Positions 13,599 through 15,595 of a DNA stretch of 64,000 bases are shown here, piece after piece. The DNA lies in IMG/VR virus record IMGVR_UViG_3300001305_000002, positions 29,340-93,339 of that record; one strand, 5' to 3'. How positions within the stretch are numbered: position 1 is the stretch's first letter; the number at the start of each line of letters is the position of its first letter. Made by a program: the position numbers and the translations under genes. Source of the stretch: a virus. The notes below the pieces were generated by a model. The model was not told the origin of the DNA. It did no database searches and worked only from the letters and a program-made list of their open reading frames with translations.

Positions 13599-15595
13599 TT
13601 GGGTACTAGAAATGTAAATATTAATCGTTACGAAGATGAGTACGCTCTCTTCGGTAAGGCACTTCCTTATATAGCCATGCTTATTGGTTCTGGGTTGGTG
13701 TTCTTACTTGCAGTCGTTACGCGTCTGGGTATTTATTCTCAGGATAGATGGAACCATACACCTCCTGATGATTCTACTAAGATGGTTGTTTGGATTATTA
13801 TCATCAGTTGTGTTCTGTTGTCTGCTCTAGGGTGGAAATTATTCAGGCCACGAGACCAATTCCATCACTATGTTTCTGTTCATGTTCTTATTACTAGTAT
13901 ATTAGTCCATGCTTGGTTGCTGATGGCTGTATTGCAGAATCAGGGTGAATGGATGTTCGGTATGCCTACGGTGTATGCTTATTTCTACGGTGGTGCTGTT
14001 CTTGGTTTGTCCTGGTGTATTAGAAGATGGTCTTTCCGTGGCGAGATAAACGGTGAGGAAATGACTAATAATTCTTCTGATATCTGGGAGGTTATCGGTC
14101 TGGGAAAAGCACAAGGCCCAGAAAGAACTCTGGGCTCAAGATTTATTCGTCAGACGACAACAAAAGCGAAATCGGGTATAAGTTCACTCTGGATCTGGAT
14201 CATAGTAAGACTATCGAAGACGCCAAGAAGAAACTCCCCGAGATAGCTCATGTATTGAAGAAGCCTAGGAGTTTAGTGCATGTTTCTGAGACTCTTAAAG
14301 GTGTTGAAGGCGAAGTAGAGATTACTGTTATCCACAACGATCCTTTCGAATTCAAGCGTCATTGGGTTGCTCCTTCTTCTCCTGGTGAAAGCATTGTTCT
14401 TCCTATTGATTTTGCTGTTTACGATACTGAGCAAGTTGGTCATATCTATATTGCTGGTAAGAATGGAGCCTCATCTGAGCATTTCTTGACTATGGGGATG
14501 CCTGGTACTGGAAAGTCTAAGGTGTGGCAGGCTATTTATGGTACCGTCTTGAGCAGGAAAGAAGTATCTGTAGTCTACGGTGATCCTGCTAAGGGTATGC
14601 AGACAGGTGGGCCTTTGGCTTCTGGTCTTGATTGGTTTGAGTGGACTGAGGCTGGTTGTAAGTCGCAGATTAAGGCTGTTATGGATGCTATTCCTGCTAG
14701 AACTAATTATCTTACCAGCCGTGGATTGTCTCATTGGCAGTCTGGTTGCGGTCTTAATTTCTTGATTTTCCATATTGAGGAAGCTGCTAGATTTGCTGAA
14801 GTTGCTGATTTGGTTGTTCTTCTGGAAGCTGCTAGAAGTGCTGGTATTGCTGTTGTTGTTTCTCTTCAGCGTGCTAGTCATGATAGGATTCCTACGTCTG
14901 CTCGTTATAATCTTGGTGGAAATCTTTGTTTCGGTGTTAAAGGTAAGAGGGATGCTGAATTCGGTTTATCCGAATACGCTAGAGAGTCTGGTGCTACTCC
15001 ACATATCTGGCAGAATAGATTTCCAGGAAGGTTTTATCTGGAGTCTACTGGTATCGATCAAAGATTAGCCGGTCATCCCCTCCAGGCGTATTGGGTTGAT
15101 GATAAGCTGCTGGAGACTACGGTAGATGAGGCTGCTTCTATCAGAACACCTATGGATGAGATTACTGCTACAGCTCTAGGACCACGTTATGCTGCTTATA
15201 GAAATGAAGTAGCAGCAGGTACTACTGATTGGCAGAATATGCGTAACAACAGAGGATTTAGAGACACTACTCCTACACAGGGATATACTTTTGAAGATAC
15301 TGATGTTCCTTGGGATACTTCAGTAACAGAAGAGGATAGTAAGGTTAGGGCTAGAGTAGTACCTAATAATAATCTTATGACTGATCCTGAGGATACTGCT
15401 AGAGCTAATGCTGAATTCATGAGCCTGCTTATTGATTGGCATAGTCATGGAAAGCATACTTTTTCTAATAAAGAAGTATCAGCAGTATTCAAGTCCAGGA
15501 GTCCCGGATGGATCTCTAAGAAGTTGAATACTATGAAGAATGCAGGTCAAGTAGAGAAGACTCCAGAAGGTTTGTGGAGGATTATTTCCTTATAG
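13599..15595 (+). CDS. traB: TraB/FtsK-SpoIIIE-type conjugative DNA translocase in two frames joined by a candidate -1 frameshift at 14102-14108
   Basis: Frame 0 encodes four TM segments; -1 frame is open from 14081 with Walker A GMPGTGKS, Walker B FHIEEAA, RSAGIAVVVSLQRA and a C-terminal winged-helix-like segment. Confidence 0.8.
14102..14136 (+). promoter_or_regulatory. Candidate programmed -1 ribosomal frameshift signal
   Basis: G GGA AAA heptamer in the correct phase; hairpin GCCCAGA-AAGAAC-TCTGGGC begins 7 nt downstream. Confidence 0.65.

Follow-up and report, generated by a model that had tools for sequence, protein, structure and literature searches.

A probable programmed -1 ribosomal frameshift between the membrane and motor domains of a TraB-like translocase gene in a large soil phage

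To our knowledge, tail-assembly chaperones, together with a few capsid genes, account for almost all known programmed -1 frameshifting in tailed phages. The gene considered here is a TraB/FtsK-like DNA translocase gene located at positions 13599 to 15595 of a 64,000-nucleotide (nt) stretch of DNA, hereafter the window, which covers positions 29,340 to 93,339 of IMG/VR virus record IMGVR_UViG_3300001305_000002. It is divided over two overlapping reading frames and, judging from its sequence and from that of its relatives, very probably uses a real -1 programmed ribosomal frameshift. Outside phages, the dnaX gene of E. coli, which encodes tau and gamma, combines the heptamer A_AAA_AAG with an upstream Shine-Dalgarno (SD)-like element and a downstream hairpin.

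The -1 frameshift of phage lambda G/GT has been described (Xu, Hendrix and Duda 2004, as cited in PMC3398947). In the PRFect survey of the SEA-PHAGES set, tail-assembly chaperones accounted for 2397 of the 2476 annotated actinophage frameshifts, the rest being hypothetical proteins (PMC10885494), and GGGAAAA is the annotated -1 slip site in the gene for a tail-assembly chaperone from the Microbacterium (actinobacterio)phage Bush (PMC11749239). An interrupted membrane-protein gene giving two length variants is represented by tssM of Citrobacter rodentium (PMC4256274), while the alphavirus 6K/TF -1 frameshift is stimulated by membrane insertion of an upstream transmembrane (TM) helix (bioRxiv 10.1101/790444; PMC8682741). 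TraB from conjugative Streptomyces plasmids (pSVH1 and others) carries a membrane domain at its N-terminus, then an FtsK-like motor and, at its C-terminus, a helix-turn-helix recognizing DNA (Vogelmann et al. 2011, as cited in PMC4447253). Translocases of this type form a hexameric pore, transfer double-stranded DNA at the expense of ATP and read the 8-bp repeats of a clt locus with their C-terminal winged helix-turn-helix. Literature searches, full text included, yielded no report of frameshifting in TraB or FtsK, and a recoding review from 2016 contained no FtsK, TraB or translocase case (PMC5009743); the first-pass annotation, which knew of no frameshift in TraB, was in agreement with this. 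Among instances of this known recoding mechanism, the locus is new and comparatively well supported, and it lies in a TraB/FtsK family for which no earlier report was found.

The source record is a 108-kb virus record of a large soil phage, estimated to be ~80% complete. All coordinates below are positions in the window, and the features of the gene, including its two open reading frames (ORFs), are as follows.

13599-14246, plus strand: ORF A, 0 frame, TTG start, stop TAG at 14244-14246, 215 amino acids (aa); membrane domain, continued beyond the slip site by a tail of 45 aa.
13662-14021, plus strand: region coding for four predicted hydrophobic (transmembrane) segments, from a Kyte-Doolittle scan; aligned and conserved in split and unsplit homologues.
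14081-15595, plus strand: -1 reading frame, opening after TGA 14078-14080, stop at 15593-15595; linker, FtsK-type motor and C-terminal winged helix (predicted).
14086-14091, plus strand: SD-like GGGAGG, 10 nt 5' of the heptamer (dnaX-type spacing), over W-E-V codons.
14102-14108, plus strand: slippery heptamer G_GGA_AAA in X_XXY_YYZ phase, directly 3' of the conserved IGLG motif.
14109-14115, plus strand: spacer of 7 nt separating heptamer and stem.
14116-14135, plus strand: candidate stimulatory hairpin, 7-base-pair (bp) stem GCCCAGA/TCTGGGC with a 6-nt loop AAGAAC and an optional eighth pair, G.U 14115-14136.
14141-15250, plus strand: FtsK/TraB-type motor domain (NF041214, Foldseek), with Walker A GMPGTGKS at 14495-14518.
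15386-15583, plus strand: C-terminal winged-helix-like domain of three helices and two strands, from AlphaFold secondary structure at a predicted local distance difference test (pLDDT) score of ~90.

ORF A and the -1 frame overlap by 166 nt, and the first canonical start codon of the -1 frame is TTG 14255. Conceptual fusion in the -1 frame gave a protein of 665 aa, in which IGLGK is joined to STRPR. These data bore out the anatomy given in the first-pass annotation: an ORF in the 0 frame to 14246 overlapping a -1 ORF open from 14081, a G GGA AAA heptamer at 14102-14108 in X XXY YYZ phase, a hairpin GCCCAGA-AAGAAC-TCTGGGC of 7-8 bp placed 7 nt further on, and a fusion of about 665 aa with the junction peptide IGLGKSTRPR, which proved collinear with unsplit homologues.

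The junction sits on short homopolymers, and an indel introduced into the G3A4 run by sequencing or assembly was considered as a rival explanation. Contigs from two independent studies, one of soil (2016) and one of rhizosphere (2019), were identical across the junction. A strain from a third study, ~97-98% identical, was represented by a contig spanning 14082-14386 with six substitutions and no indel; its sole change near the signal was 14125 G>A, within the hairpin loop. Moreover, six diverged loci obtained from different samples and with different assemblers shared one frame relation. The lack of indels in the contigs of three studies, which was the check that the first-pass annotation had proposed, together with the equal split of six diverged relatives, means that the split is not an assembly error, and an indel can be practically dismissed.

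Both GGA and AAA of the heptamer are 0-frame codons. The hairpin folded at -14.0 kcal/mol in RNAfold, which added the G.U pair. Within the overlap, G_GGA_AAA was the sole XXXYYYZ heptamer and it was in phase. Among the 260 XXXYYYZ heptamers found on both strands of the window it ranked first by downstream fold (-14.0 against a mean of -4.1, standard deviation 2.75), and the chance expectation for the overlap was 0.0026 in-phase heptamers followed by a hairpin at least as stable as -12. The combination of heptamer and hairpin is more than chance. GGGAGG was displayed by the window and by one relative (L002) only, being absent from the other five split loci; it may be an enhancer peculiar to a lineage, or the W-E-V codons may produce it by coincidence, and it is treated as optional.

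Other roles for this segment were considered. A consensus scan flagged the hairpin as terminator-like on the minus strand; this was rejected, as there is no minus-strand gene here, the supposed T tail merely complements the slippery site with its spacer, and the element strictly co-occurs with the frame split. Transcriptional slippage was likewise rejected because the overlap lacks any run of five or more identical bases. A search of 13950-14300 against Rfam returned no known RNA family.

A homologue search with the -1 ORF gathered 115 proteins. Gene calls gave lengths of 439-471 aa for the six closest proteins (100-70% identity), while nearly all of the others (at most 64% identity) measured 624-730 aa. 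Six related metagenomic loci (L001, L002, L003, L004, L016 and L017) were all split, and in each of them a membrane ORF (210-233 aa) overlapped an ATPase ORF lying in the -1 frame; with the window they make up the seven split loci referred to below. Identity amounted to ~70-81% in the ATPase parts of these loci and 53-64% in their membrane parts.

All seven displayed (C/T)TGGGAAAA directly after the conserved IGLG motif. The heptamer was invariant and the spacer was always 7 nt long, although three of its seven positions varied. A GC-rich hairpin began at the same position in every locus, with folds of -11.6 to -15.0 kcal/mol. Two subclades could be recognized. In the first (window, L001, L002 and L017), the stem GCCCAGA/TCTGGGC was invariant around a variable 6-nt loop (AAGAAC, AAAGAC, CCAAAC or AAAAAC), while the second (L003, L004 and L016) displayed a stem GCCCC(G)/(C)GGGGC and a loop of 9-11 nt. 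The -1-frame peptide encoded over the hairpin, STRPRKNSG, was identical in the window and in the second subclade, and differed at few positions in L001 and L002. Stem differences between the subclades were synonymous, Arg AGA being replaced by CGA and Ser TCT by AGC. Pairing has thus been rebuilt beneath a fixed protein sequence, given these synonymous switches and the unchanged STRPRKNSG; this stem compensation is presented descriptively.

Constraint beyond the protein level was also apparent at third positions. Across the window, L001 and L002, synonymous third positions were invariant at a rate of 0.40, and those inside the stems were invariant in five cases out of five (p ~0.01). In the Leu and Gly codons forming the heptamer, the third base was likewise fixed throughout the split clade and variable in the unsplit one. 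Unsplit relatives (L005, L006, L007, L008, L010 and L012) displayed IGLG followed by E, S, D or Q at this site, with neither heptamer nor homologous hairpin. The alignment of related phages advised in the first-pass annotation therefore supported a -1 frameshift: the closest homologues are equally split and keep heptamer, spacer and hairpin through six diverged relatives, and only distant unsplit ones lack the signal.

Additional split loci were sought in several collections. Searches by blastn and tblastn against 50,697 GenBank phage records, a collection from which near relatives of the window may be missing, gave no match. In IMG/VR, the related-locus search returned nothing with a single protein and only unsplit relatives with a 20-sequence alignment. 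A scan of IMG/VR with a DNA pattern of heptamer plus stem gave 73 matches, none of which encoded a TraB relative by tblastn, and they were for that reason set aside as chance.

Two further members of the family deserve mention. Protein P0069 (520 aa) was rejected as a short homologue: it is a gene-calling artefact, the ORF in L019 (2100-4063) being continuous, intact and TraB-like but shortened to 520 aa by the gene caller because of an overlapping 87-aa ORF call. Not all short database entries in this TraB-like family are thus true splits. Locus L018 (1978-4021, GCA_013565735.1), from a different phage contig of ~47 kb, encodes a distant TraB homologue with 44% identity to the full-length relative P0009. 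It is split after (A)GLG, with its ATPase ORF in the +1 frame, an ATG inside the overlap and an own hydrophobic N-terminal helix (MALLTLVLVALLIL) that the alternative frame encodes. Such a split is of another kind and reflects either a pair of genes or an error of assembly.

Coding in the -1 frame was assessed over 27 codons of the seven split loci, equivalent to 14174-14254 of the window and lying upstream of TTG 14255. The -1 frame displayed 239 synonymous versus 68 nonsynonymous codon differences there, as against 20 versus 278 in the 0 frame, and variable columns numbered 6, 5 and 24 by codon position. These counts indicate purifying selection on the -1 frame, but none on the 0-frame tail, in a stretch upstream of any start codon. 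Positions 14174-14254 are therefore translated in the -1 frame, though no initiation codon precedes them there.

The same data bear on the view that the locus holds two separate genes, for a membrane protein and for a soluble ATPase initiated, or reinitiated after the 14246 stop, at TTG 14255 or GTG 14276. Gene callers do annotate two ORFs in each split locus, and in the distant L018 the +1-related ATPase ORF has its ATG and its own hydrophobic N-terminus. No start codon was conserved in the -1 frame among the split loci, however; candidate starts correspond to Leu or Val codons, show synonymous variation and differ in place. Strong purifying selection in the -1 frame reaches more than 27 codons upstream of the first start of the window. 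A start at TTG 14255 would moreover remove ~50 conserved residues, which belong to a folded domain in the AlphaFold model (pLDDT ~80), and two genes would give no role to a heptamer, spacer and hairpin kept in all split loci and absent from unsplit ones. Separate initiation was accordingly judged improbable. The -1 fusion, on the other hand, aligned with full-length homologues without any indel at the junction.

A maximum-likelihood tree was built for 75 homologues, using their last 440 residues. In it, the six short proteins formed one clade (100/98) nested among 68 full-length proteins and sister to P0009/P0010. Since the split clade is monophyletic and nested among unsplit proteins, the split arose once, and it was retained through ~0.5 substitutions per site in the ATPase part. 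Seen against the 68 intact homologues, the gene is interrupted, as would be a decaying pseudogene whose translocase was inactivated by a frameshift mutation in this lineage. Yet both halves are open and under purifying selection in seven diverged loci, and the split always falls at the same codon with no second lesion, so that decay is very improbable.

More weight must be given to the idea that frameshifting is real but compensatory or throttling. An ancestral loss of 1 nt would then be rescued by slippage, the full-length protein would be the sole functional product, and the 215-aa protein would be a by-product; at most, the site would hold down the level of a potentially toxic translocase. 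The 0-frame tails following the slip site were unconserved in the relatives, with lengths of 37-61 aa, and 68 of 68 unsplit homologues manage with a single full-length protein. A purely corrective state should, however, revert easily through a 1-nt insertion, whereas the split and its elaborate stimulator were kept through ~0.5 substitutions per site, with compensating stem changes. This retention argues for selection on the arrangement, without proving a role for the short product. A compensatory origin is a possibility that we take seriously and nevertheless doubt.

Identity of the protein was assessed from several profiles. Phrog_24831 (700 positions) matched ORF A at profile positions 39-163 and the -1 ORF at 197-545; like the NF041214 model below, it spans both halves. 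NCBIfam model NF041214 (plasmid_TraB) matched the -1 ORF over profile positions 158-633 of 639 (E 1.4e-88, 298 bits) and the full-length relative P0009 (658 aa) over positions 20-633 (334 bits), the N-terminal region included. Neither reached the equivalog cut-off of 800 bits. The TraB identity proposed in the first-pass annotation therefore holds as homology, also supported by FtsK motor folds, and not as equivalence: with NF041214 scores far under the cut-off, the protein is best classified, on sequence, as a distant TraB-family homologue. Best cellular matches were annotated TraB proteins from Streptomyces, and Pfam returned no match above threshold.

ORF A displayed hydrophobic cores at residues 22-40, 63-81 and 94-112 and a weaker fourth at ~119-141; the end of this fourth segment (TM4) lies ~29 residues before the slip codon. 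An AlphaFold model computed from a 20-sequence alignment, in which Walker A GMPGTGKS was invariant, reached a pLDDT of 70.6. Its top PDB matches in Foldseek were the FtsK motors 6t8b, 2iut and 2ius (E 2e-8 to 3e-7), followed by TcpA and EccC, and a PDB profile search pointed to FtsK at E 8e-4. The C-terminal domain was modelled as helices 436-455, 463-469 and 475-487 and strands 491-493 and 499-501, at a pLDDT of ~90, and gave a weak match to the AbiEi winged helix-turn-helix. Together, these results predict a membrane domain, an FtsK-type motor and a winged helix, as in Streptomyces TraB.

Expression of the gene very probably proceeds as follows. Translation from TTG 13599 would make the four-helix membrane domain, after which the hairpin starting 7 nt downstream would hold the ribosome at G_GGA_AAA (14102-14108). 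A fraction of the ribosomes would slip back by one base, tRNA-Gly moving from GGA to GGG and tRNA-Lys from AAA to AAA simultaneously. Shifted ribosomes would read the -1 frame to 15595 and produce the 665-aa protein of membrane domain, motor and winged helix, while unshifted ones would end at 14244-14246 and release a 215-aa membrane domain with a 45-aa unconserved tail. The data demonstrate the anatomy of the signal, its conservation, the selection on both frames, the lack of any other start and the fact that the split is derived and arose once. That slippage actually occurs, with what efficiency, and that the short product is of use, we infer, as we do the fixed ratio of membrane-only to full-length subunits put forward in the first-pass annotation.

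By analogy with FtsK, whose N-terminal domain works apart from the motor, the short product might serve as a membrane-only subunit or partner, and the frameshift might also be a way to throttle a translocase harmful in excess (dosage control). A more elaborate scheme makes the frameshift a regulated switch in place of a fixed-ratio device, its efficiency being set by the insertion pull of TM4 or by the supply of phage tRNA-Lys(UUU) and tRNA-Gly(UCC); product proportions would change during infection and the membrane-only product would act at host septa or cross-walls, like the FtsK N-domain. Such a switch seems rather unlikely.

Several points weigh against a programmed frameshift as described above. 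The shifted product is a predicted one, and no RNA-seq or ribosome-profiling run containing this phage was found. Only seven split loci are known, with two hairpin types, and the upstream SD-like element is not conserved among them. Column-wise covariation could not be formally demonstrated: RNAalifold on an ungapped codon-true alignment missed the stem, because the pairing register differs by one base between the two subclades, and a MAFFT alignment confined to the hairpins set the gap in an unhelpful place. Between the slip site and the 0-frame stop there are 45 codons, a longer distance than in many phage signals, and as the 0-frame tail is unconserved, a specific function of the short product is unsupported.

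The 108-kb record carries genes for polynucleotide kinase, ribonucleotide reductase, clamp loader, sliding clamp, an SbcD-like nuclease and thymidylate synthase. It also harbors 33 tRNA genes covering most amino acids (window 3052-9452 and 25458-63895 included). Two copies of tRNA-Lys(UUU), one of tRNA-Lys(CUU) and one of tRNA-Gly(UCC) are encoded; tRNA-Gly(UCC) decodes the slip codon GGA and tRNA-Lys(UUU) the slip codon AAA. One of them lies within the window.

63053-63127, minus strand: phage tRNA-Lys(UUU), decoder of the A-site slip codon AAA.

The phage displayed ~40% G+C, and its nearest cellular TraB relatives came from high-G+C actinomycetes. The set of 33 tRNA genes would fit a phage bringing along decoders for those A/T-rich codons that are rare in its host. 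Should that host be a high-G+C actinobacterium, the slip-site codons read by tRNA-Lys(UUU) and tRNA-Gly(UCC) are likely rare there. At 30712-30788 on the minus strand, ARAGORN predicted a tRNA to which it assigned no identity and whose 8-nt anticodon loop holds four anticodon bases (tagt). It may decode quadruplets (+1) or be an artefact of the prediction.

The translocase gene was found to be bracketed by two long-range inverted repeats. That at 13525-13595 has perfect 14-nt arms separated by 43 nt and stops 3 nt short of the TTG codon that starts the gene, and that at 15603-15677, whose 22-nt arms are 91% complementary and 31 nt apart, begins 8 nt past the stop; they may be processing or termination structures. 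Immediately downstream, window positions 15862-18000 displayed a G+C content of ~56% versus ~40% for the genome. Two minus-strand ORFs lie in this region: 15862-16320 encodes a small signal-peptide-bearing protein, and 16411-17049 is placed where relatives carry a Rho_N-domain protein.

The locus presents a canonical frameshift site in a non-structural gene, where it separates the membrane anchor from the motor of a DNA pump of the FtsK/TraB type. For annotation, the two ORFs are to be joined in this phage clade. Because sister clades are unsplit, the family offers a natural experiment on the possible need of a hexameric membrane translocase for anchor-only subunits or tight dosage control. 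A compact signal of bacterial type downstream of TM helices also makes a test case for nascent-chain force in frameshifting, and the gene adds further evidence for plasmid-style DNA-transfer genes in large actinophages.

With Streptomyces TraB, the protein shares its predicted architecture and homology from end to end (20-633 of 639 in the full-length relative). It differs in being phage-borne, in a genome of 40% G+C, at a score of ~300 bits, and in being encoded over two frames. The gene resembles dnaX in the three-part signal of the window (SD-like GGGAGG 10 nt upstream, heptamer, hairpin 7 nt downstream) and in two products with a common N-terminus, both of which would here be subunits of an ATPase machine. 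In dnaX, however, the shifted ribosome stops at once and the frameshift makes the short product, whereas it would make the long one here, and the SD-like element of the window is not conserved in relatives.

Like tssM, this is an interrupted gene for a membrane-anchored machine part, which would yield a truncated N-terminal membrane form and, via frameshifting, a full-length one; tssM relies on transcriptional slippage on a homopolymer run, in contrast to the ribosomal heptamer-hairpin type of signal of the window, where no run reaches five. Alphavirus 6K/TF likewise has a heptamer and stem-loop a few dozen codons past a marginally hydrophobic TM segment, a distance of ~29 residues from TM4 in the window, but it involves a eukaryotic translocon and a spacing of 45 residues. 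A coupling of TM4 to frameshifting after the alphavirus model would be pure speculation.

Lambda G/GT and the actinobacteriophage chaperones share with the window gene a heptamer of G_GGA_AAR type and a site kept across diverged phages. There too, shifted ribosomes make a longer product and unshifted ones a shorter one, the N-terminal part being common. These are virion assembly chaperones, in contrast to a membrane-anchored DNA translocase encoded in a DNA-metabolism region, and the present gene further stands apart by its strong conserved downstream hairpin and by a split that arose once inside an otherwise unsplit family.

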